A DNA stretch of 61,497 bases, filler included, from Globobulimina sp. (lineage: Eukaryota), in the NCBI GenBank assembly GCA_003354225.1. It is 22 parts of 22 records of this genome, joined end to end, with 100 filler letters (N's around TTAATTAATTAA, not from the genome) between each part and the next. Parts side by side here need not be neighbours in the genome. Positions count along the whole stretch, not along the records: positions 5,606 to 8,307 come from PIVH01005283.1; 21 more parts are not named here. One strand, given 5' to 3'. The notes under the pieces are model-generated. The model searched no databases, was not told the DNA's origin, and saw only the letters and a program-made list of their open reading frames with translations. Below, piece by piece: positions 33 to 56,004 of the stretch (position 1 is its first letter; each line of letters opens with the position of its first letter). The translations under genes were made by a program, and so were the position numbers.

Positions 33-677
33 ATGACATTTTTTGATAAGAATATATTTCGAGATTATATACGAAAAGAAAAGTGTACCTTAATTCCTTT
101 GAATAAAAATATTAAATGTCGGCGAGCGTCAAGAAATCACGGCAAATATACCTTTGTTATCTCAAATGCTGAAGGCGATCGAAAATGGTATTTTTCGCTA
201 AATTCAAAACGTATTTTAACAGATTGGCTTAAATTATTAACCTTTCCATTGAATAAAAATCGAAAATGTATGGAAATTACAAATAAAAACACACAATGTC
301 ATAACAAATATTATTATCCACAAAAATCAAAAAATAAAAATTATTGTGATATTGAAATTGAATCAACATTGAATGCAATATCCACAAAATCATCAAAATA
401 TGTATGGCCAATGAGTGATAAAACAAAAGATAATCAAATCGCAAAATATCGAAGCTTAAGACCACAAATAATTAAATTTATATCATCGCCAACAAATGTC
501 ATTGACGGTCCAGGTCCAGCTCCGGATTCAGATTCATCTCTTTTGACATTGACGGCATCGGCCTCGGCCTCCAGTAATTTAAGTTTTTTATCTACGCATT
601 GTAACCAATTGCAAGATGAAGGGGAAAATGCTAATTTTGCTGACACTGACGATTCATTTAATGTTTACATAACATAA
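33..677 (+). CDS. Probable PH-domain-containing protein, likely 5'-partial
   Basis: KYTFVISNAEGDRKWYFSLNSKRILTDWLKLL resembles the last beta-strands and Trp-containing C-terminal helix of a PH domain; low-complexity tail follows. Confidence 0.4.
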   Translation: MTFFDKNIFRDYIRKEKCTLIPLNKNIKCRRASRNHGKYTFVISNAEGDRKWYFSLNSKRILTDWLKLLTFPLNKNRKCMEITNKNTQCHNKYYYPQKSKNKNYCDIEIESTLNAISTKSSKYVWPMSDKTKDNQIAKYRSLRPQIIKFISSPTNVIDGPGPAPDSDSSLLTLTASASASSNLSFLSTHCNQLQDEGENANFADTDDSFNVYIT

Positions 678-1312
678 TTTATCTGAATCTCTGTTAAATA
701 GTCAGCTGCATTGTATTTATTTTTAGCTATATATTCCAGCTCCATTCGTCTCTTAATTATATACAAATTGTTTTTCTTTTTTCCCTTATTGACTATAAAT
801 TATTTATATTTTATTATCGTTTGTACAAAAGAATCATTGCTTTTTTTTTCTTTTGCAAGTGTTGTTTGTGTATATTGACTTATAAGCAAATTCCATGCAA
901 TTTGTTAAAACATAGGTTAATATCGACTCCATTATCTCATAAAAAATTTTTTATTTTTTTTTCGCCCCGTATTATATATAAAACTTTTTTTTTTTGTGAA
1001 AACCTTTCAAGTAAAATTATACTCAAGAAAAATGAGATTGATTATACTTTCCTTGAAAGGTTTTGACAGATATATAGAACATTTACGTAAATATTATTTT
1101 GTTTGATGACTTTGATGTCCAAAGGAAAATGTTTGCGCTAGAAAAAAATTGTTACATTGAAAGAACTGCATTTATCGCAGAGGTTTTAGGTTTCATGTTT
1201 TTTATGTTTGCTATGAAGTTAAGTGGTGAGATCGTCGATTTTGTGGTATTGTACATTGATTTTAAATTACAAAGATAAGATGCTTGGCATGCACATGTAT
1301 TGCAATTGGTAA

Positions 1313-2035
1313 CTATATAGAACTTGATCTAGCACTAAAACTTGACCGAGCGTCCTGATCCTGATCCTCGTCGAAATACTGTCTTCGTGATGCAAGTTGT
1401 CTGCTTAAACTTTGTGTCATCCCTATTCCTATCCCTGTACTTGCATTTGTACTTGTTTCATTTCTCCAATGTACACTAGGTTTCCTTAATAATTTGCCTT
1501 TCTCAATTTGTTTCAACAAAGATTTTCTAATATTACTTTTATTATTGACTTGTTGTGTGTTTTGCTTTTGCATAACATTTGGAGATGGAGGTACCGGTAT
1601 TATTACTTGTATTTTTGTGGGAGGAGGAGGAGGTGGAGGAATTGCAATTGTTTTGTGGAATTTCCGTGGTGGTGCTGATGGTATGCTGCGTCTTGATTGC
1701 CGTGGTTTTGTTAATTTAATATTATGCAATGAAGGTTCGCGTATTTGTATACCGGGATAGATTGTTCGCAATGTGTTATCTGATACAATTTTGTAAATAT
1801 CACTATGTGTAATTGCAACATCTAGATCTGATGAATCATTATTGTCTCCCAAACAACGTCTAAAAAATATATTGAATACGGCACCAATTATACCGAGAAT
1901 ACAAATAACCAATAAAAGAACATGTAGTATTTGGTCTGAGCTCTTTAAGTGGCCACGGCGTTGATGTTGGGTTGTTTGTGTAAGAAACAAAATCAATAAA
2001 ATTGACGCAGCTAAAACGATAATATTTCGGAGCAT
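1313..2035 (-). CDS. Membrane-anchored WASP/WAVE-like protein (hydrophobic segments, poly-Pro, WH2, central and acidic segments)
   Basis: Two hydrophobic stretches (IIVLAASILLILFL; ILHVLLLVICILGIIGAVFNIFF), then PPPPPPP, a WH2-like RKSLLKQIEKGKLLRKP, and GIGMTQSLSRQLASRRQYFDEDQDQD. First ATG is at 2035. Confidence 0.55.
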   Translation of the reverse strand: MLRNIIVLAASILLILFLTQTTQHQRRGHLKSSDQILHVLLLVICILGIIGAVFNIFFRRCLGDNNDSSDLDVAITHSDIYKIVSDNTLRTIYPGIQIREPSLHNIKLTKPRQSRRSIPSAPPRKFHKTIAIPPPPPPPTKIQVIIPVPPSPNVMQKQNTQQVNNKSNIRKSLLKQIEKGKLLRKPSVHWRNETSTNASTGIGIGMTQSLSRQLASRRQYFDEDQDQDARSSFSARSSSI

Positions 2036-2703
2036 AGCATAATAATATCGGAGATACAATTCATTCAAAAGTGCGAAATGGAGTAAACTACAAAACGTAT
2101 CTCTTGAGCAGCTGCTATACTTTTCAACATCTTTTCATGTTGAACCAGTTCATGCTGCGTTCCATCGCATCTTTTATCATTGGCTATTATTTGTTGTCGG
2201 TGTAGGAATCGTCGATTCTAAAAAACTCTCCACTACGCATCTTCAAATACAAAATAACAGTGATCATGGCTTTATCCTGGACCCTGAGAGTACAAGTACG
2301 TATATTAATATATACATTGTCTAATGGTAATACACAATATACAATATATTTAGATTGAAGATGGTTGCAATTTTGATTTTGGGTTTGATAAAAATGAGAG
2401 TGTGGGAGGTTTTTTCCGATGTGTCTTTAATAAATGCATTAATCAATGCAGCAAAAAATGGAGTTCGCTAGACAAAAAACAGGAAAGCGACCTGTGTGAC
2501 ATAGCCTACTGTACTGTACCTAGCTAATTTTACTAACTAAAACCCTCGATACTTTGCAGATGTTTCCTCACATCTAGTGAGAACAGGTGTCAAGTTAAGG
2601 TAGTCTGAGTAGTCTGGTATACCCCTAATCAGATTACCACTGTAGTACTGTAGGTGGGATACATTAAGCACACTATACTAGCAGTAGCTAGTAGCAGCTA
2701 CTA

Positions 2704-2803
2704 NNNNNNNNNNNNNNNNNNNNNNNNNNNNNNNNNNNNNNNNNNNNTTAATTAATTAANNNNNNNNNNNNNNNNNNNNNNNNNNNNNNNNNNNNNNNNN
2801 NNN
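2704..2803. other. Artificial contig linker (44N-TTAATTAATTAA-44N), first of 21
   Basis: Identical 100-bp spacers start at 2704, 5506, 8308, 11110, 13912, 16714, 19516, 22317, 25118, 27918, 30718, 33518, 36318, 39117, 41916, 44714, 47512, 50310, 53107, 55904 and 58701. The 12-mer has stops in all six frames. Contig lengths fall monotonically from 2703 to 2697. Confidence 0.99.
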
Positions 2804-3708
2804 TCAAACTCCGAATCGATCGATGTATTTCTAACTACAATGCATCAGTGTCAGATCGACACAAAATTAGCGAATTTGACATAAACATCCATACAACAAA
2901 GTGGATGACTAAGAATATCCAAAATAAACAATTTAACACATTAATTCATTGTAAAACAGATAAGAATAAAGCCGCATTATTGGCACAGCGGAATAAAAAC
3001 TCGGGTTCATTTTTTAATATCTCAATGCGCAGCGGATACGGACAAATTTATACAAATACAGAATATAGAATCATTATCAAAAAACGATTACGTGTCGAGA
3101 TGATTGCCGCCGGTGAACAATGTCTGTGTTGTTTTGAAACATTAGACTTATTCGGCGACCATGCGGCAGTCTGTAAATTTGGCAAAGGCATCATTTTTAG
3201 GCATGATATCGTGGTAAAAGCCATCTCGTCATTATTAAACCAGGCAAAAATCAAACATTCAATTGAATTACGCCATCTTTTCGACGACAAATTATTAAAA
3301 CCGGCAGACATATTCATTAAGAATTGGGGCACCAAAGGAGAAGAATACGCATTTGACATTGGTATAGTTTCAGTCTGCGCGGATAGCAACTTTTCAGCAG
3401 CAAGCAAGCATTTATTGGCTGCAGCAAATAAATTTTATAATCATAAACTAAATAAATACAAACAATATGTCAATGATAACAAAATTAATGTACGTCAATT
3501 AATTTACGTACCCATAATCATTGAAGATTATGGCGGTCTTCATCGCGAAGCCGTGAAATTAGTTAAGAAAATTGCAAATCGTCGAGCATCAAATATGAAT
3601 CTCGACGTTCCTGACTCTATCGGATACTGCTTTCAATATATCAGTTCATGTCTGATGAAAGCGAATGCGATCGCCACCTTAAACCATTACAACATCTATT
3701 ACACATAA
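2804..3708 (+). mobile_element. 3' part of a CRE-like non-LTR retrotransposon ORF (CCHC knuckle + restriction-like endonuclease)
   Basis: CLCCFETLDLFGDHAAVC zinc knuckle, RHD, KPADI, AFDIGIV, KLNKY and PIIIEDYGG match the RLE C-terminus of CRE-clade elements. Same motif order as 14012-16466. Confidence 0.85.
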
Positions 3709-4003
3709 ACCAATTAAATTAATTCCATTTATGACACAATGTCCAGAACAATTTGTTCTCGACACAATCTGAGTTTATTTGATTGTTTGACTTATTTTCT
3801 TGTTATTTTTGTTTTGTCACAATTTATCCATTTTTAATGTCTATGAAATGAATTTTATATCATTCTATAGCAAAATTATTATATGTTTAATTAATTACTT
3901 TGTTTTTGATCCTTTTCTATTACATTATTTAATAATTCTCTTTTTTCCTTTTTATTCATTGTCGTTTTCCTTTTGAGTTTTTGGTTCTCACAGCGAACTT
4001 TAA

Positions 4004-4420
4004 AGTAAGTATACCGGTCAAAACAAAACACATTATAAAACATGATAAAACATTGATGAAACAGTGTAAAAAACAATACAAAACACATTGTAAAACATAA
4101 TAAAACACATTATAAAACATAATAAAACAAATTGTAAAACACACAAAATAATTTATAAAACACAATAAAACATATTGTAAAACATAGTAAAACATTTGAC
4201 AAAACACAGCAAAACACATTGTAAAACATAACAAAACAAATGAAAAACAACATAAAACAAGTTATAAAACAAACAATAAATTAGAAAACACGAAAAAAAC
4301 TGTATTAAGTCAACGTATAACTGAAGTACACAGATAATGATACGAAGAGACCATGGTTAAACCTCTGGTATATCCACGTAGCTCAATTGGTAGAGCATTG
4401 TTTTGACCGGTATACTTACT
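4004..4420. mobile_element. 417-bp MITE-like non-autonomous DNA transposon
   Basis: Perfect 23-bp TIRs AGTAAGTATACCGGTCAAAACAA (4004-4026) and TTGTTTTGACCGGTATACTTACT (4398-4420), flanked by direct TTTAA (3999-4003, 4421-4425). Internal AAAAC-rich tandem repeats; no credible coding sequence. Confidence 0.8.
4021..4290 (+). repeat. Degenerate ~22-bp tandem repeat (AAAACACATTGTAAAACATAAT-like) inside the MITE
   Basis: AAAAC recurs about every 10-12 bp, with strong A/C strand bias. Confidence 0.8.
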
Positions 4421-5505: not shown

Positions 5506-6211
5506 NNNNNNNNNNNNNNNNNNNNNNNNNNNNNNNNNNNNNNNNNNNNTTAATTAATTAANNNNNNNNNNNNNNNNNNNNNNNNNNNNNNNNNNNNNNN
5601 NNNNNTTTCGGATTTATAACAGTTTTTAGATTTTGAAATCATGATTTCGTTTTTTTATTAATATTCTTTTTTTGTGAACAATAATTCTGCCTTGAATAAT
5701 AATGTAAAATAATTGAAGCTTTTTATCTTGGTTCCATTTCCTCATTACACTTATGGACAAATGACCTCATGCTCCTATCCTTATTGCATTACATGGACTG
5801 AACGCTGGTGAACAAAGTTTCTGATTGTTTGATATCAAGCTGTAATTCGGAGGTTTGATTTTGTTTTGGATTTGGATTTGGAATATTTGATATTAATGTT
5901 GAATACTTGGAATCGCCTTGGTTTGAGTTAATTTTATTCAACTGACTTCGGAATTAATTCCCATGTTAAAAAATGAAAAAAACCTCCACTCAAAGCGCAT
6001 TTGGTTGGCTCATCCGTGAATGACAATTCTTCATTAGTTAAATAACTCTGGTGCCCACTGCCCAATCATTATAAATAACAACCTATCACAAAATAATAAC
6101 AGAATCATATTCCACAAACCAAAACAAAAGTCTTTGTGAGACATAACACCAAAGAAATACGCAAAATCGCATTGACAATCTCCACCACAAAAACCAGAGA
6201 AAAAACCGTTG

Positions 6212-8234
6212 ATGAACCAAGCGCTTTTACCATCCGAATCGATAAATAATAGTAAAAACAAAACCAAATCGCCTGTAAACCCGCAATTGCAAAACAAAGA
6301 CATTTTAGTCGAAGCAGACAAGTCAGACAACAACAATATGAGTTTCGATGTGAATAAGAAAAACAGTGAGCAAAAGCAATCCGCATACGGCGCCTCCACG
6401 CATCAACAAAACAAGACCATGTCCGGTGGAGGAGGCAGTGTCGGCGGCTCCAATAACCATCACAACGCCAATGGCAACAATGTGGCCGACGACGCCACGC
6501 ATATACGACTATTGCAAGACGTCTTTGCCACCGCCAACAAAACCGGCACTTTGGAGAAGAAAATGTTGACGCCCGCTGTTTGCAGGACAGATGTCATGAA
6601 GTTATGGAGAGAGGTCTTGAACAACAATGTATATAATGGCCTGAGGTACATTAATATATTCATGCGAATATGCGATATATTCCTTCAGTTTGAACCTAAA
6701 AAAAGTTTCAAACCAAAAATAATTCAGTTTGAAACTAAAAAAAATCAGTTTCAAACTGATGAGATAACAAAAAAAAAATATGATCCAGTTTGAAACCATA
6801 TTTTTCCAGTTTGAAACTGAATTTTTCTGGTTTGAAACTGAATTTTTTTGTTTGAAACTGATTTTTTCTGGTTTGAAACTGAAAAAACACACAGAAAAAT
6901 CCAATTGCGTTGGTGTGCGATGCAGTCGGCGGGGGCCAAATTGTTAGCGGACGGCTTGGGCAATTCTTGCATGAACAGCTTGGAGACCTTGGATTTAATG
7001 GGCAATGAGATCGGCGTGTCGGGCAGCCGCGCAATCTCTCAGTTATTAGCACCCGGTGTGGATTTGGACTCCTTCCAAGTGCAGGACAGTCGGAGTGTGC
7101 TGGCAGCCTTCGAGCACACCACACGGATCGGCTGCATCCGAACCTTGATCTTATCGTACAATTGCACGTCGGATGCGGGCTGTGGCTATTTGGGGAAAGC
7201 CATTTGTATCAGCAACACCATCAACAGATTGGAGTTAGAAAACTGCGAAATTGGAGACAACGGCTGCAAGTATTTGCGGCGTGGCATTGAGCGGAACCAA
7301 ACCATCAAAATCTTGAATATTGCTGCGAATAGATTCGGTGATTTAGGCGCACGCGAAATACAGTCGTTTTTATTGCGAAACAGTTCATTGTCGAAATTGG
7401 ATATTTCTCGCAATAGGTTGGGACCACAAAGAACTATGGAAATAGCAAAGGGTACGTCCGCAATGCAGCAGTTTCAAACTGCCCTTTTCAGTTTGAAACT
7501 GAACAAAAAATAGGTCAATATTTTCGAATTCAGTTTGAGACTGAAACTGCATCCGATACATAGGGCTAACCATGAATCGATCGCTCAAAAATTTGCGTAT
7601 GAATATAAATCGAATCGGTGCGCGTGGCGCCCAGTTGTTGGCCAAGATGTTGATCAACAATCACAGTTTGGAGGAGTTAGAATTGAGTTACAACGAGATA
7701 TTTAATGATGGCGTCCAAGTCTTGGCACAAGGCTTGGTCCAAAACCACGGCCTCAAACGCATTGTGTTGTGGTATAACGGCTTGGAGGACGCAGCAGCGC
7801 GGCAATTGGCGCGTGCCTTACATCAACGCAGTAAACAGGCGCATTTCCGCAATGATATGGTTCAATCCATAGCTGAATCGCAGCCGGATTACTTTTTCAT
7901 CATTGACAAGAACGCGGCGCATACACTCAACAAACACAGCCAGGCCAACCATTCGCAGCCAAGCAAGAAATCGAGACATCATTCGTCGAAATCGAAGCCC
8001 AGACCGCATCCGGAAACCTATCCAATTTGCGAGAAAATCGTGGATTATTTGCCGGTGTATATGTATTTTGAAGTGGATTTATCGCACAATCGAAGGATTA
8101 CGAAGAATGGTATCAATGCGTTGTTGGAAGTAGCGAATAGTGACAGTATCGCCGTGAGGGGGTTAAAGGATTTGTTGTCGAGGGATCGGAGAGAGAGAGA
8201 AATTGCTGCTTTAGCAAAAACTTCGTTATATTAA
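6212..8234 (+). CDS. Ribonuclease-inhibitor-type LRR protein (NLRC3-like repeats), 3 exons
   Basis: Repeats such as LETLDLMGNEIGVSG and LEELELSYNEIFNDG. GT-AG introns 6646-6894 and 7452-7563 join the ORFs in frame (NGLR|KIQLRW; AKG|LTMNRS). Start codon uncertain. Confidence 0.85.
6685..6882. repeat. Array of about 9 palindromic CAGTTT[G/C]AAACTG units in LRR intron 1
   Basis: GTTT cores at 6688, 6705, 6727, 6748, 6788, 6809, 6830, 6850 and 6871 (mostly 20-22 bp apart). Three more copies lie in intron 2 (7468-7544). Confidence 0.9.
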
Positions 8235-9066
8235 TTAGCTTTTACATGCGTCTTTTTTTGCTTTTTTTTTTCTTTTGTGTTTTTTTTTTTGGTGATGTAA
8301 TAATTGTNNNNNNNNNNNNNNNNNNNNNNNNNNNNNNNNNNNNNNNNNNNNTTAATTAATTAANNNNNNNNNNNNNNNNNNNNNNNNNNNNNNNNNNNNN
8401 NNNNNNNGATATCATACCAGATATCAAATATAATCAGGATTACTATCCATTGACATGGCTTCAACCGCATAATGTATTGAATGTCGCGTCAATCACTGCG
8501 AGAGCCATTGAAACATTTGATTTGAGGGAAAATGCCAAAAAATGGAAAATTCACCATGTGGAGGACAAATTTGATGAGATTTTTGGGGAACAGTTGGAAT
8601 CCTCAAATGCTGCAAAATATCGATTATTTGCTTGATATATTCAATTTTTCGATCCATTCTGAGTTTCGAGTTCTGTTTTTTTTTTTGTTTTCATTGCCAT
8701 AAACATCAGTCGTATGGCAAAATTGCATTTATTCAAACTAGCATCATATCCATACATCGTAGTTCAACGTGCTTTCTCTAATTTTTTGAATGAACTGAAT
8801 AAGCGTATAATTTTATTGAATCCCAGTTTTATCCGATAAGAAAACACAAAAACAAGTACAGTTTTGGAAAATTGTAGAGACCAAAGAATACTCAAAAACT
8901 GTTTTCAAAAAGCCGGTACTAAGAACAATCAAAAGGTACATAAAAACAACTACAAATCCTAACCTTTACTAGTGATCATTAATAAAATAAACGTTATTAC
9001 ATGAATATGAGTAAAAATATCGCCAAAAAACAACAACAACAAAAAAGATAACATCATGTACATAAA

Positions 9067-14011: not shown

Positions 14012-16466
14012 TCGCGAAGGTGATCTCAGTCGCGCGGCTGCAGCGTTAACGACTAATGGTATGGCCCCATTAACAGAAACAATTAAACAAGAATTAATTG
14101 ACAAGCATCCAGCACAAATTCGACCCGATCTGACTATATTTAATTTGGATAACTCACCGGAAATCGAGTTAATTGCCGGCGAAGTATTCAAAACATGCCT
14201 CAAACAGCAACGATTAGGAGGTTCCGGACCATCGTCATTGAGGCCGTATCATATTAGACAATGTGCGCGGAGCTTTAGTGGACGTAAATTGGCGTTAAGC
14301 ATCGCAAAATTTGGGCGGTGTTTGTTTAGAGGTGATTTTCCTCTGTATTTAGGTAAATATTTCGCAGCGTCGTCATTATATCCGCTATGGAAAGATTGCA
14401 CGTTAACTCGTGTCCGGCCTATAGCAGCCGGCGACGTCTTAGATAGAATTATTGGTCGTACTGTTATGAGGAATAAAAGAATGGAATGGCGCGACTTATT
14501 GGAGCCAGAACAATTGTGTTTATCCGAACGCGGCACAGAAAAATGTATTTTTGCGTGCAAGCACGCGATTGCCGCTAATCAGAACAATAAGGATTGGATT
14601 ATGGTGGCAGTGGATATTAAAAATGCTTATAATTCGGGCGATAGACAGATTAAATTGATAGCAACACAGAAATATGCGCCGGAATTGTTGAATTTTGAAA
14701 TATTAAAATATAACGATAGTATACCATTATATTTATCTGACGGTACAGTGGTGCAGTCACAAGCCGGTGGCAAACAAGGCGACACATTGGCTGGTTTGAA
14801 TCATGGTTTGTATGACAAACATATAGTCGATCCAATACGATCCAAGCCGCAGTATAATAATTTATTAAACGTCGCATTCGCCGATGATAGAAATTTTGGC
14901 GGCGATACTAAAACTGCAGCAAATTTTTACAGGGAAACTCGCGAAGCTTTGGGAAAAGCCGGAAGCGAATATGGATCGGTTAAATGTTTTATTTTCATGC
15001 ATCCGGATAATCCATATATCGATCAAACCGTTATTGAAGCGGACGAGAAGAAAGCCGAACAACTCCGACATCGTAAAATTAGGCAAATGTTTGGAGATTC
15101 GGATATATCCATTAATTATGGATTCAATATGAAATTATTGGGAGCATATATTGGCGAAGATGCGTACGTAAAAGAAAGAGTTAGCGAGAAAGTCAAAGAT
15201 TTACAGTTTCTCATGGATCAAGCCGCTGCTTTGGAGGATACGCAGGCGGCAGTTTTATTACTATCAAATTGTTTCGATGCGTGTCGATTAAATCATATTA
15301 TTCGTACGACGCATCCATTGATTATTATTGATGCTTTAAAGGATTTTGATTATTCATTAAAAGAATCGTTCGAACGTATTTTCGGTCGAACTTTTACCGA
15401 TTTTGAATTTATGGAATTTTGTTTGGGAGTTAAGGAGGGCGGTCATGGAGTTCGCACAATTGAAGACATTTCATACGCGGCTTATCTGGGTTCCTACGCC
15501 CAAACAATTCCATATTTGCAAACTATTGGTACCAACATTGAATGTGATCTTTTATCAAATTATATCTATGAAGATTTTATTGCATTGAAGCGGTTATTTT
15601 GCGAGAAATATCATGTCGATCCATCAAAATTAAGCGATAATTCATTATTGAATCAAGAAACATTATCGGATCATATTAAAGAGTATAGGTTGACTCAGTT
15701 TGAATCTGGCCTGAGTTCAGCCATTAACAAAAGTCGACATTCAACAGCAAAGGCTGCCAATTCAGGCGCTTGGATTCGTGCCAAGCCAACAAGAACAGCA
15801 ACTATTTTACCTCCGATATCTTATAAATTTGCAACATATTCAAGGTATGGATGGAAGATATTTGATTGGAATGTGGATGAGAAAAATTGTGTGGATTGCG
15901 ATAAGGAAATGGATGCTTATGGCGCCCATTGTATTAATTGTGGCAGTCGGGATGGAGTATTTACATATACACATAATAAAATTAGGGATTGTCTCGTTCA
16001 TTATTCAAAACGAGCAGGATTTTTAGTTGAAAAGGAGAAACCAGGATTATTAGATTCCGGTGCAAAGCCGGCGGATTTGTATTTATTCAATTACTTAAAA
16101 GGTCAAGATTATGCATTTGATGTGACTGTGGTGTCACCGTATAAATCAAATCAATTGGCTGAAACTATCCGGTTTACCGGTATTTCAGCTGATATTGCTA
16201 TTCGTAATAAATATAAGAAATATGAAGAAGATATCAAATCAGTTCATTGGAAATTTCAACCGATTGCTTTCGAAAGAAGTGGTGGGTGGAGTTTACCCGC
16301 TCAGCTATTTGTTAAGCGAATTGCGAAGCAGTATGGATCTAAATTTAATATCAATTCAAATATTATTATCAATATTATTACATCGGAGATTAGCTGTATT
16401 CTTCTTAAAAACACAGCTTATATGATTTCAAAACGTAAAGTCGATAACGGTCCTTCGTTTTTGTAG
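14012..16466 (+). mobile_element. CRE-like non-LTR retrotransposon: reverse transcriptase + CCHC + RLE, 5'-truncated by the contig
   Basis: RT motifs GPSSL, RPIAAG, DIKNAYNS, GGKQGDTLA, FADD, LLGAYIG. RLE motifs CVDC..D.YGAHCINC, HNKIRD, KPADL, FDVTV, KYKKY, PIAFERSGG. Uninterrupted ORF of over 800 aa. Confidence 0.92.
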
Positions 16467-26194: not shown

Positions 26195-27715
26195 CTAAAA
26201 CCAATGACAATCTTTGGAACTCTTACAAAATACAAGACAACAAAAGAAGAGATCATATGGAATTATTTGATGATTTTTAGTTTTTAATTGCATTTGAATC
26301 CTTCTGATATATCCAAACACCAATTTATCAGATGTAACCATAGCAACATCCATTATTCTCCCAATCACAACAGTTCGATATTGATTACGCAAAGAAAATC
26401 TTCCCAAAACGCTGCAATCATTGTCTGTTTCCAATGAACATTGTTTGCTCAATTTTATTATCGCACTCTGTGTGGTATTATGTTGCACTGTGTCTGGTAT
26501 CTCAATAATTTCACACTCCGCCATTATACAATGACAATGAAACATGGCTTTATATCCTTTACTAACATGAACCTGCGCTGTTTCAATCACATACAACTCG
26601 GCTGCAAATATTTCAGTTCTCACTGCATAGCGAGCATTACACATAACACATCCGCTATGAATATCATCCAATGTCGCAACTGAATCTGTGTCAAATATCA
26701 TGGATACTATTTCACCACACGTTGCTGTTTTAACTCCAATGCCATTAATAACGAGATTTGGCACATTGACCCTTATTTCGCCAGGGTTAATTCTTAGGTT
26801 TTCACCAACTGAAATGGTGCCCGTTATTACCTTACCGACAACAGTCAATTTGCTGTCTGTTATAAATCTATCTATGCATATAATTCTATGTATTGCTCTA
26901 TAATTTGACCTTTTAATCCTCTTTAAAGTATCTAGCGTTTGAAACAATGTTTTACCACTGTACCATGAACAAAACGCAGATTCATTTGTCAAATTCTCAC
27001 CATTTTGAGCAGATATTGGCACAAAAAATATATTTTTTAACTTAAATCCAGTTCTTGTCGTTAAATAATTTTGTATTTTTGTTTTGATCTCATTATAGCG
27101 AGTTTCATCGTCATCAATAGTTTCCATTTTATTTATAACTGTTACTATTCTGCTTATACACATTATTCTTGCTAATATACAAAATTGCTGTATATTTCCA
27201 TCGGTACCTCGATGATCAAAACCCGCCTCGAATTCCCCACGACGTGCTGATACCACTAATATTGCAATATCTGCAATAGCCATAGCTCTATAGCACATAT
27301 ATCAATATATAATATCATTAACTTTTCGTTGTTTCAAAATAGTGAATCTTCTTTTCGTTGTTTCAAAATATGCGTGGTTATATTCCATAGTTGCACCTTT
27401 TTGTCTTTCTGCGTCATCCTCATCCATAATATATGCAAATAGTGATGAAGGACGCTTCCATATTTTTGCTTGCTTTGCTAATTTTGCAACGGCTGTCTTG
27501 CTAATAAGGCCAGCTTTGACTCTGTTCCCATTTTAAAAATTTGTAATTTACTTGTTATCAAATATCAATGTAGAATTGGTGCATACGTACAGTATTAGTC
27601 CACAAAGTGTTGATTTCCCACAACCATTATAACCCACTACGGCGACACTGATATGTTCTCTGGAATCGTGCTTGTTTAGTTTCTGTTTCTTTCTCTTTTT
27701 CTTTGAACTAGACAT
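26195..27715 (-). pseudogene. Divergent eRF3/HBS1/EF1A-like GTPase with a disrupted G3 motif
   Basis: Exon 1 has GYNGCGKSTLCG (G1). After intron 27522-27590 come FAYIMD...ERQKGATME...FETTKRRFTIL, then ADIAILVVSARRGEFEAGF, NKME and LGRFSLR. DAPGH is missing, replaced by a 20-bp duplication with a frame break at ~27300-27345. Confidence 0.7.
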
Positions 27716-30817: not shown

Positions 30818-33501
30818 ATATGCCCGGCGGCGGTGCGCCGCACGTCGGCTTTCCCGAGAAAAGCTTTCCAAAATACGCAGAGTCCTTCGTCAAGCATGGA
30901 AAAAAAGTGTACCGCGTGGAGCAGACCGAGACCGTGGCCGAGCAAAAGAAGAAGAAGCACAAAGTGGTGACGCGCGAGGTCTGCGAGGTGTACTCGCGGG
31001 GCACCATCGTCCCGGAGGAGCTGCTGGAAGGCAGTCTGACCAATTTCCTGCTGAGCATCGCCGAGGAGGACGACTGCAAAATGACATCAAGCATCGCCGT
31101 GGCGGTGTGCTACATGGACTTTTCGACGGGCGCCGTGCATGTGGGGCGCTTCACGGACGACCGGAACCGGTCGAGGCTGCGCACCTTGATCTACCAGACC
31201 AGCCCCGCGGAGGTGGTGTACAAGAAAGGCGCGCTGAGCAAGGAGACGCAGTCGTTGCTGAAGCAGGACGCGCGGCAGAGTCAGCTGACGGCGCTGAGCG
31301 CCGAGCAGTGCTACGACGCTGTGCAGACGCAAGGCATCATCAAAGGGGAGGCGTACTGGGACCGATGGGAGAATTACCCGGCGGTGCTGGCCAGGGTCTG
31401 GGCGCAGGATCTGACCATGGCTGCGGTCGGCCAGGTTTTGTATATGCTGCAGGAGACGATGCACGACCATGAGATATTGCCGCATTCCGCGTGGAATGTG
31501 TACGATCCGACGAGCACGAAATGCAGTCGGTTTCTGACATTGGACGGGTCCACGTTGGCGAATCTAGAGATTTTGCGCAATGACGAGGGTACGCGGCGAG
31601 GGACGTTGATCGAGTTTGTGGATCATTGTCAGTCTAAATGCGGCAAACGAATGTTGGAGACGTGGCTGCGTGCTCCGTTGAATCAGTTGGAAGCGATCAA
31701 TGAGCGGCTGGATGCGGTGGAATATCTGATTGAAGATTGGGACTATTGGACGGGGATTGAGGTCCAGAGCAAATTGAAGGCATTGCCCGATTTGGAGCGG
31801 ATATTGCTGCATTTGGCAGTGTTGGGGATGAAGAATCGCGCCATGGATAAAGCGGTAATGTTTGAGGACTGTTGGAAAAAGGCGAAAGTGGAGAAATTCT
31901 TGAAAGCGTTGGATGGGTTTGACGCTGTTAATAGTTTGTTGACGGAGATCGATCGGCATCGAAAGTTTATTAATTCGCAGTTAGTGACTGATATTACGAC
32001 AATTGTGACATTGCCGAATATTGTGACAGAGGATGAGGATGAATTTGAGACGAAAATGAATGAGAGGCACATGTTTGAATTTGGTTCGGTGATTGATACA
32101 TTCCGAGATTCGTTTGACGCGGAATTGGCCGCAAATGAGTCGATAATCTCGCCCGTACCCGGCAAAAATGAGGATTTTGATGAAATTGAAGAGAAATTGA
32201 AGAGAAATAGTAATTTGTTGGAGAAGATATTGCGAGATGTTCAAAGGGAGTATAAATCGACGAAAATTCGATGGTGGAGTAAGAAGAATGGGAAAAAAGC
32301 GCAGATTTATAATCTGGAGATACCCAAAGAATTACATATCGATCCTCCGGAAGAATGGCATCATCGTAATTCCACTACGAAAGTGGATCGATATCACACT
32401 GACGAGATTTTAGACTTATTAGATGTTAAAGATAAGTTAGAAAATGATAAGGAAACGCTATTACGAGATGCCGCACGGCTCACTTTCGAAAAATTTGCCA
32501 AACATGGTGTGATTTGGAAAAAAGTGGCGCAAAATATTGCAATTTTGGATTGTTTGCTGTGCTTAGCACAGACTTCGCGATTTGCGCCCGGTTTTGATAT
32601 GGTGCGGCCGCAATTTATTAAGCACAAAACCGCGTTTTTGGAGATGCGCGAATGCCGCCATCCATGCATTGATGAGTCGTATTTAAATAAAGTGGGACAA
32701 ATAGGCGGCGCAGCCACCTTTATTCCAAACGATACGGTGTTGGGTTGCAAGGAGAATGCGGCGAATTTCGTGATTGTGACCGGCCCGAATATGGGTGGCA
32801 AATCCACGCTGTTGCGGCAAACGTGCGTCGCTGTGATATTAGCACATATCGGCTGTTATGTGCCCTGTGAGTCTATGATATTGACCCCGGTGGATCGCAT
32901 ATTTACGCGAGTTGGCGCAAACGACCGCATTTTGGCCGGACAGTCGACATTCATGGTGGAGTTGGAAGAGACTTCGAGCATTTTGGACCATGCCACCGCC
33001 AATTCCTTGGTGATTTTGGACGAGTTAGGAAGGGGCACCTCGACATTTGACGGTACTGCCATTGCTTTTGCAGTGGCGGAAAGGTTGATTGATGTCATTA
33101 AATGTCGCTGTTTGTTTAGTACACATTATCATGGTTTGTGTGACTCGTTTGCGGGGAATGAGAAAGTGGCGAATTATCATATGGGGTTTAAAGAGAATAC
33201 GGTGACGAATTCGATTACGTTTTTATATAAGTTTACGAAAGGAATTTGTAAGAATTCGCATGGTATAAATTGTGCGAAAATGGCGTTTGATGTGGATCAA
33301 TTTGGAGGAATGTTGGAAAGGGCGGAGAAGAAAGCAAAGATATTGAAGGATCGGATGCATTCGGATCAGGATCTGAGTAATGAGAAGGAATTGCTTCGGC
33401 AGTTTGAAGGTTTGATGGGTGGGTTAATGGACGGAAATCTTTATCAAAAAATACAAGCAGACATTAAAAATAAAAATGAGACTAATAATATGTGTGGTTG
33501 A
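30818..33501 (+). CDS. MSH6: DNA mismatch repair protein MSH6, 5'-partial
   Basis: PHVGFPE and G.KV.RVEQTET (MSH6 mismatch-binding region), LDGSTLANLEI, TGPNMGGKSTLLRQ, STFMVEL, DELGRGTSTFDG, FSTHYH. Confidence 0.93.
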
Positions 33502-33617
33502 TTTTTATTGTCTTTATNNNNNNNNNNNNNNNNNNNNNNNNNNNNNNNNNNNNNNNNNNNNTTAATTAATTAANNNNNNNNNNNNNNNNNNNNNNNNNNN
33601 NNNNNNNNNNNNNNNNN

Positions 33618-53206: not shown

Positions 53207-53282
53207 TTTTTTTGTTTGAAACTGATTTCTTCGGATTTAAATCAAAAATTTGAGAATCAGTTTCAAACTGAAACCGATACAG
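53207..53282. repeat. 3' end of a probable intron carrying GTTT[G/C]AAACTGA palindromes
   Basis: TTTGTTTGAAACTGA and TCAGTTTCAAACTGA, followed by a ...GATACAG acceptor-like site. Confidence 0.6.
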
Positions 53283-54045
53283 CCAACCAAGCCTTAGCCA
53301 CCGCCTATGGACCGTCGCAGGCAAAATTAAACAAAGCAAAATTAATGGCATCAACCATAAAATGTAAAAATACCGATTTAAAACAAATATTTTCAATGAT
53401 TAAGGATCAATTAAAGAATGATAAGAAAAGTCAATTGCCCGAATCAAGAGACCGGCCACCAATCAAGAGACCGAATCGGATGAATTAATTTGGTACAAAA
53501 CTCAAGAAAATTTCAAATCAAATAATAAGGAAACTGATGCGATTGCAGATAAATTCAAAGATATTTTAAATGGGCCAATTTTGGATTTAGGCCCATTATC
53601 AACGAAACCTTTAAAAGAAATAAAATCAAATCGGAATAATTATAATAAAAAACGTTCAAATAAAAATAAGAAATTGTCATTGGATTCGGAGTTTGATGAA
53701 TTTGAAAATGAAAATATGGCGCCAATGGATTGTAATAAAGATAATCAATCAAAGAAAATGGATACAAATTATTCGCATCCATCGCTAAAGACATATCGGT
53801 TAACAATTGATTCGACGACGTTTTTATTAAATGTTTCCAAATCGGACTCAAAGATTAAAGATGAAATTCGTGGAGAAGTTGCAAGTGCATTTTTTGGTGA
53901 GTTTGGAGAAGAAATCCAAGCTATTTATCGTGGTTTAGTTCAACGTGGATTTGAAATGGATGAAATTGCAGAGAAAATATATAAGATCTCATTGAATTTG
54001 AAAGGGAAAGGAAAGAGTGTTGGAAATGGCAAAACTGAACAATAA
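53283..54045 (+). CDS. Hypothetical low-complexity protein, 3' portion (exon structure unresolved)
   Basis: Successive ORFs 53216-53488 and 53581-54045 with protein-like composition. Confidence 0.35.
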
Positions 54046-54525
54046 AATTTATTTTTTCTTTTAAAATTAGATAAATTATACATTTTTTGTATGTACTTTA
54101 TAAAATACTATTTTTCTTTTTATTTTTATGTATTCCTAGTTTGGATATTGGGTTTTCTATTATTTTTTTTTTGTTTATAAGATATTATTTGTCAAACACG
54201 TGATAAAACAAATAATATTATGTATTAAACGTAGTTTTGTGTATGTTTGGTATTAATTATTTGGTCATGTTGTTTTTTATACATTTTTATATTTAGATTC
54301 ACTTTTTTTGAGCAAATACTGATATAATTTCATAGCTTTTGTGCGAGGATAAAAATAAATAGAGACTGTAGCTTTTGTGCAAGGATAAAATATCAGTTTG
54401 GAAAAGAAAATAAACGTTTTTGTGTATTAAAAATTAATTATTCAAACAAAAAAGAATCAATTTCACAAAATCTAATACAAATAAACTTAAAAACAAACAA
54501 AAAACTAATTTTAAACGTATAATAT

Positions 54526-55694
54526 TTAATTTTCTCGCAATGGCGATATCTCCAAATTATCATTGGTTAAAATACAGCAACAACGAAATATAACATCCAA
54601 TTTATCCAATCGCCATCCAAAATCGTTTAAAATTGGAAATAAAGCATGCAATCTTCCATAATAATTCTCAACAATAACACGCGCGCCAGAATGATTATAA
54701 TTAAATACGCGTTCAGCTGCTGTCAATTTCAATGCTGTTCGCTCACAAAACCGCGTAATATACGGTATCCCTTTAGTAATCAAAATAAATTCAGTTTGAA
54801 ACTGAGTTGAATTTCTTATTGGTATAGTTTCAAAATCAGTTTGAAACTCGTAAATAATTCAGTTTCAAACTGAAAATTCCATTTAATTCACCTTCAAATC
54901 TCCATATTCCATCACACATAACCCAGTGACCTGCGGTTATACCAACATATAAATTGATATTTATTCCAAAATCACTCCGCCGCAATAATTCGATGTCATT
55001 AATACGTCCGGCTTCTCCGCCATGGCAATGATATAAACGCCCAAATCCCGAATGAACTGTCAAATAATTTACAGTATGTTTCTTTTTTCGCCCATTATAG
55101 TATTCGCGTTGCTGCCGTGGCGGTTTTTGAATAACAATCTGTGTGAATTTGTATACAAAGTAACAGTTTCAAACTGAAATACAATGATAGATTCAGTTTG
55201 AAACTGAAAAAATACTCAAATCAAAAAATATAATTCAGTTTGAAACTGAAATAAAATCATACATTATTTCCATCCATCATCCATACAGCACCATCAAATT
55301 TGTCTGCAAATACGGCACATCCAACTAATGCGTCATATGCAGCAGACCCCACCAAATGTAATGATAATTCCACACCGCGCAACTTTAAAAATATCGATAA
55401 TAATAAATAAGAGTCCATGTAAATCATTGATTTACATAAACCCCATGTAATTTCCATCATTTTCACATTAAAATGCCGCAAAACTATAAATGCCATCAAA
55501 CATCTATATGGCCTTCCATTGTCTGACTCCCTTAATCTTCCGCCTAATATCCATTCATTAATACTCTCGCGCGTATAACGTAATATTGGCGCAATAACAT
55601 CCAAAAATTTAATCCGTATGATATTGTATTTAAATCCAAATAATCCAATGAATTGCGTTTCGTTACAGTAGTGTTCCCGATAAGAGGTACGCAT
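54526..55694 (-). mobile_element. PIF/Harbinger-type (DDE_Tnp_4, HARBI1-like) transposase gene with two spliceosomal introns
   Basis: Removing GT-AG introns 55139-55262 and 54771-54891 gives WMMDGNN|IVIQKPPRQQREYYNGRKKKH...GRIND...MCDGIWRFEG|IPYITRF...FNYNHSGARVIVENYYGRL...CCILTN, with a complete D-D-E triad. Start uncertain; no TIRs seen. Confidence 0.85.
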
Positions 55695-56004
55695 ATTAGT
55701 ACTAATATATATATTAGTTTTACTAATATATTTATATTCTGGAGCACATGTCACGCATTTGCTGCAGCTTTTGATTGACTTTCTATCTTTCCAAACAACG
55801 TCAACATAAATTCCCTCTGACCCTTTACCCAAACCTAATTTTGTTTCAAGACTTGCAGTTAATACACATTTGGCTCCTCGTACGAAATATTTTACTAACT
55901 GATNNNNNNNNNNNNNNNNNNNNNNNNNNNNNNNNNNNNNNNNNNNNTTAATTAATTAANNNNNNNNNNNNNNNNNNNNNNNNNNNNNNNNNNNNNNNNN
56001 NNNA

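Follow-up and report, generated by a model that had tools for sequence, protein, structure and literature searches.

We describe here a short palindromic repeat that is confined to five introns in a stretch of 61,497 nt of DNA, filler included, from the foraminiferan Globobulimina sp. (assembly GCA_003354225.1), hereafter called the window. The repeat is built on the 15-bp interrupted palindrome TCAGTTTSAAACTGA, and its copies form foldback arrays in two introns of a leucine-rich-repeat (LRR) gene, in two predicted introns of a Harbinger/PIF-type transposase-like gene, and in a putative partial intron of a third gene. We favour the reading, to which we give about an even chance, that a foldback hairpin repeat, or one resembling a miniature inverted-repeat transposable element (MITE), was amplified locally, colonised existing introns, and is tolerated there since it is spliced out. 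The window consists of 22 contigs of 2,697-2,703 nt, each separated from the next by an N44-TTAATTAATTAA-N44 spacer, and all conclusions on the motif come from a sample of five introns in three genes on two contigs (contig 3, PIVH01005283.1, positions 5606-8307; contig 20, positions 53207-55903).

Allowing up to two mismatches, TCAGTTTSAAACTGA is found 17 times in the window against 0.35 expected, a count reached by none of 100 shuffled sequences. Sixteen of these matches lie on contigs 3 and 20, and the remaining one (position 15695, two mismatches) falls inside a reverse-transcriptase open reading frame (ORF). The 9-nt core GTTTSAAAC is present in 19 exact copies against 1.30 expected: 18 are in the 681 nt of the five introns, none is in the 11,344 nt of other non-ORF DNA (i.e. 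DNA outside the five introns and outside ORFs of at least 100 codons), and one, at 26937, is covered by an ORF. When a single mismatch is tolerated, contig 3 holds 12 cores and contig 20 holds nine, and all 21 are within the five introns, with nine in 6646-6894, three in 7452-7563, two in 53207-53281, four in 54771-54891 (one degenerate), and three in 55139-55262. The promoter and intergenic portions of both contigs contain no copies, and the 23 cores found elsewhere at this threshold are spread across 13 other contigs, as background.

These results partly confirm the preliminary description of this DNA: the palindrome is real and most of what was reported of it is accurate, including the places and counts of its copies, the core spacings in the first array-bearing intron of the LRR gene (17, 22, 21, 40, 21, 21, 20 and 21 bp, which we reproduced exactly), and the lack of copies outside introns, to which the core at 26937 is the single exception among exact cores. 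Two of its generalisations have to be narrowed. The claim that every intron on both contigs has the motif fails, as the LRR gene contains a spliced 66-nt intron (6037-6102) without it. The motif is indeed common to three unrelated genes, but the Harbinger-type gene shares contig 20 with the ‘probable intron end’ listed apart from it, so that two of the 22 contigs are concerned.

The LRR gene (RNI-type, LRR_6; Pfam E-values 5.7e-18 and 1.2e-9) lies on the plus strand of contig 3 at 6212-8234, with coding exons at 6212-6645, 6895-7451 and 7564-8234. Joined, these give an ORF of 553 codons with one terminal stop, exon 2 starting at 6895. A search of public sequencing runs found contig 3 in five of seven listed runs (two studies, none recorded as RNA); four runs were compared over the contig, and X6 and X7 covered its low-complexity parts only. 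Run X5 is treated here as RNA-like because of its depth profile and its GT..AG joints. Its depth on contig 3 is 300-3000 over the exons, 41-125 over the arrays, and 0 in the first two bins (5606-5787), and depth in the two array-bearing LRR introns is roughly 3-20% of that of the exons. The joints of X5 omit intron 1 (6646-6894; 249 nt, phase 2, nine units; joint depth 656) and intron 2 (7452-7563; 112 nt, phase 1, three units; joint depth 448), both GT..AG, as well as the motif-less intron 0 in the 5' untranslated region (6037-6102; 66 nt, GT..AG; joint depth 193). Run X1, which is DNA-like with a depth of about 5-7, retains all three introns and has none of these joints. The segments are therefore removed by splicing and not by DNA elimination, and homologues derived from transcriptomes are collinear through both LRR junctions. 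Canonical GT-AG splicing is thus verified by joined contigs in two of the five motif introns, as had been proposed for the LRR gene; the other three are assigned from sequence. X5 also contains a second transcript of low depth (8.3), about 85% identical over 7187-8177 and spliced at the same intron-2 position, with a 251-letter replacement at 7682-7949; it is either a paralogue or an orthologue from another species in that run.

The second motif-bearing gene, on the minus strand of contig 20 (54529-55903), is transposase-like and of the DDE_Tnp_4 (Harbinger/PIF) type (PF13359, E-values 7.9e-10 and 1.7e-9), with exons at 55263-55903 (running off the contig), 54892-55138 and 54529-54770. Its two predicted introns, each placed by a frame change and GT..AG borders, span 55139-55262 (124 nt, phase 0, three units) and 54771-54891 (121 nt, four units of which one is degenerate). 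The DDE_Tnp_4 profile begins just past the former; it runs up to position 81 before the latter and resumes from 94 after it. The third segment, at 53207-53281 on the plus strand, is the putative 3' portion of an intron that is truncated where the contig ends; it holds two units and ends in ...CCGATACAG, the AG being followed by an open frame. We infer the three contig-20 introns from frame, from GT..AG or AG borders, and from the way the Pfam profile continues. Searched against longer proteins, the first exon of the DDE gene gave no spliced homologue; it returned two Helitron/PIF1-like proteins whose matches take in 18-19% of the query.

A single unit is a near-palindrome of about 17-21 nt, roughly WTTCAGTTTSAAACTGAAW, of which the 15-mer is the core. 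Its orientation can be told from the central G or C, and both orientations are present in every motif intron. A lone unit is predicted to form a hairpin of 7-9 bp (-5.0 and -6.2 kcal/mol), and since the unit is self-complementary, any two units are able to pair. Together with A/T-rich spacers, the units make up arrays of 57-201 bp, and the outer units of each of the five introns make inverted arms of 17-48 nt, 77-100% complementary. This geometry is clearest in intron 1, where the array (6685-6885, 201 bp) has four left units with A-rich spacers and five right units with T-rich spacers, so that the whole array is a foldback; its inverted repeats include arms of 43 nt (88% complementary), 34 nt (91%) and 48 nt (77%). 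The view that the spacers are unrelated A/T tracts thus has to be qualified for the two halves of the intron-1 array, and stands between introns, as these share only isolated 8-mers once the units are masked.

Predicted folding is accordingly strong. The minimum free energy of the whole of intron 1 is -75.5 kcal/mol (z -9.5), and the z-scores of the five motif introns are -9.5, -4.5, -5.7, -4.8 and -5.7, against -1.1 for the motif-less 66-nt intron. Individual hairpins stand out in intron 2 (7486-7546; 61 nt, -21.1 kcal/mol, z -6.2) and in the partial intron (53209-53273; 65 nt, -23.2 kcal/mol, z -5.3). Per nucleotide, the motif introns fold at -0.24 to -0.30 kcal/mol and three short introns at -0.04 to -0.08 kcal/mol, and the predicted folds of the motif introns leave just 5-20 nt outside stems. 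Without their arrays, the four complete motif introns would measure 36-50 nt.

Ordinary introns of this genome are short. The intron of the GGT gene on contig 22 (60111-60161) measures 51 nt, as fixed by alignment with the homologue P0001, the gene having an 85%-identical relative in EukProt, and four other motif-less introns are predicted at 59-84 nt (including 59, 64 and 74 nt). An automatic search for introns between pairs of ORFs was too noisy to serve as a census, and the cases cited were picked by hand and are predictions apart from that of GGT. Within this set, all five introns of more than 100 nt carry the motif, and the motif-less ones (51 and 66 nt verified, 59-84 nt predicted) are all shorter. 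Motif and motif-less introns (the latter on contigs 5, 9, 14, 21 and 22) share weak GTW 5' sites and A/C-rich 3' ends in ...ACAG. The 5' sites include GTTAAT, GTTAAA, GTATTT and GTACAT, and on contigs 3, 5, 9, 14, 20, 21 and 22 the 3' ends are A/C-rich (...AAAACACACAG, ...AAAACCACAG, ...AATAATAACAG) in place of a pyrimidine tract, which is an unusual splice-signal profile. The CACACAG found in two of the motif introns was weighed as evidence of homology and dropped, as motif-less introns also end in ...ACAG or CACAG. The CTGA of the unit was likewise dropped as a candidate branch site, CTGA or ACTG preceding the acceptor in several introns at inconsistent distances.

The preliminary description had the units arrayed at a phase of about 21 bp. 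In intron 1 the spacings do cluster at 21 bp (Rayleigh R 0.91, p 1e-4), and Tandem Repeats Finder (TRF) reports there a 21-nt tandem repeat of 4.6 copies with 85% matches (6788-6883), which is the origin of the phase, and a second tandem repeat of 22 nt and 2.5 copies (6704-6756). The eight spacings in the other four introns are 20, 42, 46, 33, 12, 23, 30 and 42 bp, with R 0.20 and p 0.73 at 21 bp and R 0.59 and p 0.06 at 10.5 bp. In these four introns TRF found no array of the palindrome unit; the one entry it gave (54855-54912, 29 nt x 2.0) is a different repeat that overlaps one unit of the intron at 54771-54891. The phase is thus confined to the tandem array of intron 1, and is a product of unit duplication and not a general rule of placement. 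In having a head-to-tail unit of 21-22 nt (21 nt x 4.6 and 22 nt x 2.5 copies), intron 1 resembles an intronic minisatellite, from which the repeat differs in that the other four introns are not tandem and that the unit is palindromic and occurs in both orientations.

Further copies exist in DNA run X1. There, the summed contig depth, which is not a copy number, reaches 33-37 on the array of intron 1 and 13.9 on intron 2, against about 6.8 alongside, and the joined contigs run from array to array with differing letters between them or end loosely in other flanks. This extra depth and these foreign flanks indicate further loci with similar arrays in that DNA. A scan of metagenomes for two motif copies 3-33 nt apart gave 21 loci, none of which is of the same family. 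Most of them are paired operator-like sites beside bacterial genes, and three (L003, L010 and L020) belong to an unrelated satellite of 43 bp whose flanks differ. Two loci from one marine metagenome (L011, 933-975, and L017, 1261-1325; GC 0.51-0.55) contain an identical TCAGTTTSAAACTGA with a CATTTC spacer in a 21-bp tandem repeat. They lie on eukaryote-like, GC-rich contigs and have the palindrome and period of intron 1 in a clearly different organism, a likeness that may be a coincidence of the search pattern or may mark a wider-spread unit. Scans of the same type gave 0 matches in viral contigs and 0 in contigs of prokaryote genomes.

Concerning the age of the intron positions, the LRR gene provides a comparison. 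A search with its exon 2 returned 28 proteins, twelve of them at 96-98% identity and from transcriptome or metagenome collections, and two named proteins of Reticulomyxa filosa at 82% and 79% identity; contig 3 is therefore foraminiferan. According to the table in PMC13746701, which includes Reticulomyxa as one draft foraminiferan genome among those of rhizarians, R. filosa has about 2 introns per gene, a mean intron of 87 bp, a median intergenic distance of 426 bp, and a fragmented assembly, and the window fits these tabulated traits. We aligned the spliced LRR protein with 20 homologues, R. filosa being represented by protein models. Insertions occur in only two R. filosa models, both predicted from genomic DNA: at junction 1 exactly, P0137 has 16 additional residues, and at junction 2 exactly, P0135 has 20. 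The insertion in P0135 starts after the intron-split Gly codon and closes with Glu-Gly, which is what reading through a 60-nt GT..AG intron of that phase would give. Translations of the motif (QFET, QFQT, SLKL or SFKL) are absent from both insertions, which are also too short for an array. This suggests that short plain introns are present at both positions in a distant foraminiferan and that the arrays would have entered existing introns: with motif-less insertions at both junctions, the introns read as older than the arrays.

We therefore arrive at the reading put forward at the outset. The arrays would stem from a small, non-coding, selfish repeat of the foraminiferan nuclear genome, foldback or MITE-like, that settled in pre-existing short GT-AG introns and was amplified in place through slippage of the 21-nt unit. 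It would persist because the spliceosome takes the array out of the messenger RNA; and because the array folds on itself, the splice sites would in effect lie hardly further apart than without it, in introns that then measure 36-50 nt and in a genome with ordinary introns of 51-66 nt. That the unit is or was mobile is our inference from this pattern, and self-folding may likewise explain why longer introns are tolerated. Two ideas of the preliminary description come close to this, namely a micro-element spreading among introns and a hairpin in the RNA, and can now be given a more definite shape, as foldback hairpin arrays with more copies in X1 and in apparently older introns.

The likeness to known element families is a partial one. 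Foldback elements have long inverted arms built of tandem sub-repeats, and such sub-repeats are found here in intron 1 only, whose 43-48-nt arms span two units together with the complementary A-rich and T-rich spacers. As in foldback elements and MITEs that reside in introns, the repeats are short, A/T-rich, non-coding, endowed with hairpin arms, apparently dispersed in several copies, and genic or intronic. They differ in that what is common to the sites is only a palindrome of 15-21 bp, occurring 2-9 times per site, and in that the sample contains no copies outside introns. The MITE traits listed in PMC5172404 include small size, terminal inverted repeats of short length, high copy number, a preference for genic regions, and sequence identity between members. 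Terminal inverted repeats are present in all five introns, almost by construction as the arms are palindromic units.

Several observations weigh against this reading. Target-site duplications of a common length or sequence are lacking: an exactly adjacent 4-nt direct repeat (AAAT) flanks one of the five arrays and is trivial in A/T-rich DNA, while of the other four, one has TGCA displaced by 3 nt, one has only displaced A-rich repeats no longer than 3 nt, and two have no repeat at all. Nor is there identity along the element, since masking of the units leaves the five introns with a few isolated, mostly A/T-rich 8-mers in common and no conserved interior; without conserved internal sequence, the repeats fall outside the definition of a MITE. 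CCGATACA stands beside the last unit, in direct orientation, in the 3' tails of two introns (7452-7563 and the partial one), a hint that the element might carry its own acceptor region. In the predicted structures, the splice-site ends are less paired than the middle for the two LRR introns, which is not so for the two DDE introns (probability of an unpaired 5' site 0.65 and 0.47 versus 0.28 and 0.22). The LRR protein P0133, an 89%-identical prediction from an ENA contig that begins inside apparent intron 1, before exon 2, reads straight through junction 2, so intron 2 may be absent in its species. Random insertion should also have reached intergenic DNA, and the roughly 11.3 kb of other non-ORF sequence has no copies; five sites with such a motif-free remainder are unlikely under random insertion. 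This restriction is unexplained by tolerance alone and points to intron targeting or function, which keeps intron-specific spread, an introner origin, and a selected structure alive. Finally, the sample is small and the argument from R. filosa comes from protein models.

An introner-like origin, in which the arrays would be the decayed remains of an intron-creating element with its own splicing signals, is the first of these to consider, and we regard it as unlikely. The report on fungal introner-like elements (PMC3609843) describes, in the parts bearing on their structure, introns that are longer than regular ones, have a stable predicted structure and degenerate fast, and the corresponding parts of that on proliferating (stw)introns of Hypoxylaceae (PMC8469720) describe highly symmetrical sequences that have terminal inverted repeats and lack flanking duplications. 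As far as these accounts go, our motif introns are alike in lying in unrelated genes, in their length (112-249 vs 51-66 nt), and in their strong predicted structure (z -4.5 to -9.5 vs -1.1). The CCGATACA of two 3' tails and the apparent absence of intron 2 from P0133 also agree with an introner, which needs no target-site duplication. However, introners and (stw)introns are alike over the whole intron, splice sites included, and sit at new positions. Here the palindrome and one 8-mer of the 3' tail are all that is shared, 5' ends and spacers being unlike, and the CACACAG of two others reflects how introns generally end in this genome. The R. filosa insertions of 16 and 20 residues, moreover, suggest that both LRR positions are filled by short, motif-less introns there and are not recent gains, P0133 being the possible exception for intron 2. 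The introner survey in PMC9860276 contains neither ‘Rhizaria’ nor ‘Reticulomyxa’ in its main text.

A related and rather improbable alternative is that the palindromic hairpin is a module that moves from intron to intron in foraminifera by an RNA- or transcription-linked route. Candidate routes would be reverse splicing, lariat-derived copies, or insertion of hairpin DNA into transcribed introns. Such a module would account for the presence of 18 of 19 exact cores in introns and of none in about 11 kb of other non-coding DNA, for the lack of target-site duplications and for the unrelatedness of the host genes, and the unit is symmetric, reading the same in either orientation. Very short non-coding hairpin units that spread within a genome are familiar from repetitive extragenic palindromic (REP) sequences, Rickettsia palindromic elements, and mitochondrial double-hairpin elements. 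These belong to another domain or compartment and are not known to be tied to spliceosomal introns.

It is also possible, and in our judgement distinctly doubtful, that the structure itself is selected, pairing between copies zipping up the intron and drawing the 5' splice site towards the branch/3' region, so that an intron-definition spliceosome suited to some 50-90 nt could deal with longer introns. The 5-20 nt outside stems, the more accessible predicted ends of the LRR introns and the efficient splicing of both agree with this, as does the presence of the motif in every intron of more than 100 nt, with no motif-less intron that long. In yeast, ‘zipper’ stems draw the intron ends together by pairing. 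Structured introns are also represented by the nonconventional and intermediate introns of euglenids, in the portions of PMC3935182 and PMC4770533 that treat them. In all of these, as in the motif introns, the intron ends come nearer to each other through predicted long-range pairing. Our introns differ in having canonical GT-AG borders and in that the pairing comes from a repeated element and not from intron-unique sequence. Against selection, the predicted fold covers the 5' site in the two DDE introns, the tandem amplification resembles slippage more than design and, as it is the arrays themselves that lengthen the introns, there would be nothing to rescue without them.

The leading idea of the preliminary description was a DNA-level code, i.e. 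sites for a putative dimeric protein that are spaced by two helical turns and mark a chromatin or DNA-processing domain; the protein might be, for example, a partner of a transposase or a factor of chromatin or DNA processing. An interrupted palindrome of 15 bp is shaped like a classic dimer site, the core occurs in metagenomes mostly as paired operator-like sites of bacteria, and one host gene is a Harbinger-type transposase. Yet with the 21-bp phase restricted to one tandem array and gone elsewhere, this idea has lost its main support, and we consider it very unlikely. The gene next to the DDE_Tnp_4 gene (53282-54042, plus strand) contains no Myb/SANT or other DNA-binding domain according to Pfam and the protein atlas, so no link appears between the palindrome and a binding protein of Harbinger type. 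The arrays are retained in the DNA run and lacking only in the RNA-like one, and are thus not eliminated DNA, and promoter and intergenic parts of the same contigs are without copies. The part of the DDE_Tnp_4 gene is that of a host to arrays in its introns, and any role in mobilising them would be speculative.

Precursors of small RNAs, with the intronic hairpins of about 60 nt yielding microRNA- or small-interfering-RNA-like products by analogy with MITE-derived hairpins of plants, are most improbable: the 61- and 65-nt hairpins do have stems of about 25 bp and match microRNA-precursor models alone in Rfam, but all five matches are far under the gathering scores (22-29 vs 74-111 bits; best 29.1 vs 90) and reflect generic hairpin shape. 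We give equally little credence to a mixed assembly, with contigs 3 and 20 from a second eukaryote whose introns all bear the motif, an alternative raised in the preliminary description and compatible with a motif on two of 22 contigs of a fragmented assembly that includes a compositional outlier, contig 12; the motif-less 66-nt intron in the same LRR gene, the splice signals common to contigs 5, 9, 14, 21 and 22, and the 3-mer composition leave it unsupported. With the arrays masked, the strand-symmetric 3-mer correlation with the rest of the window, a weak test for contigs of 2.7 kb, is mid-range for contig 20 (0.971) and 0.916 for contig 3, the second lowest of 22, as fits its GC of 0.42 (contig 17 has 0.918), so that the two are not joint outliers. 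Contig 12 (30818-33517; GC 0.48) stands apart at 0.672, the other 21 contigs being at 0.92-0.99; it contains an 893-codon MutS/MSH6-like ORF and could stem from a different organism within the assembly.

Some further features of the window deserve mention. In the first exon of the DDE gene, the N-terminal part (55665-55901, minus strand) matches two Helitron/PIF1-helicase-like proteins from ENA contigs, with 82-85% identity across about 39 residues and 46% across 96, and this sequence match suggests a segment common to, or captured between, two transposon families. The gene at 53282-54042 on the same contig is made of two overlapping frames (53207-53485 and 53425-54042) around the direct repeat ATCAAGAGACCG, a split that could be due to a frameshift, to an assembly error at about 5x depth, or to a motif-less intron of 62 nt (53364-53425); it has no Pfam family above cut-off (best E-value 0.018) and no match in the protein atlas. 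Contig 2 carries another repeat family, an A/C-rich tandem array (4025-4280) in which periods of 22 nt (11.6 copies) and 87 nt (2.3 copies) are nested, within a 101-codon minus-strand ORF (3959-4261). On contig 6, an 817-codon frame (14013-16463) with a weak RVT_1 match (E-value 8.9e-5, below cut-off) is probably a non-LTR (long terminal repeat) retrotransposon. On contig 10 (25220-27301, minus strand), an ORF for an EF-Tu-type GTPase (domains II/III, eRF3/HBS1-like) is followed, after one stop codon, by a dynamin middle/GED ORF, a closeness that is unusual for genes with no relation to each other.

Very little has been described of the nuclear genomes of foraminifera, and the repeat had been presented as undescribed, which holds as far as our literature searches reach. 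Those on introns of foraminifera and Reticulomyxa and on hairpin repeats found no such repeat described, the Reticulomyxa genome paper lying outside their scope, and a search for the motif string found nothing on introns or protists. The survey of Astrammina in PMC3079666 mentions, in its relevant passages, canonical introns and many tandem repeats and nothing further that bears on the motif. As a kind, structured repeats resident in introns are already known; what we describe is a variant in a poorly known lineage, and a phased DNA code is unsupported. As a repeat that marks the longer introns, it would provide a useful landmark for gene prediction in foraminifera, and could serve as a case study of how genomes with short introns tolerate or exploit self-folding insertions. 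If its restriction to introns holds genome-wide, it would bear on how sequences multiply among introns, as introner-like elements do; if it fails, the repeat would be an ordinary hairpin element that selection has cleared from everywhere but introns.

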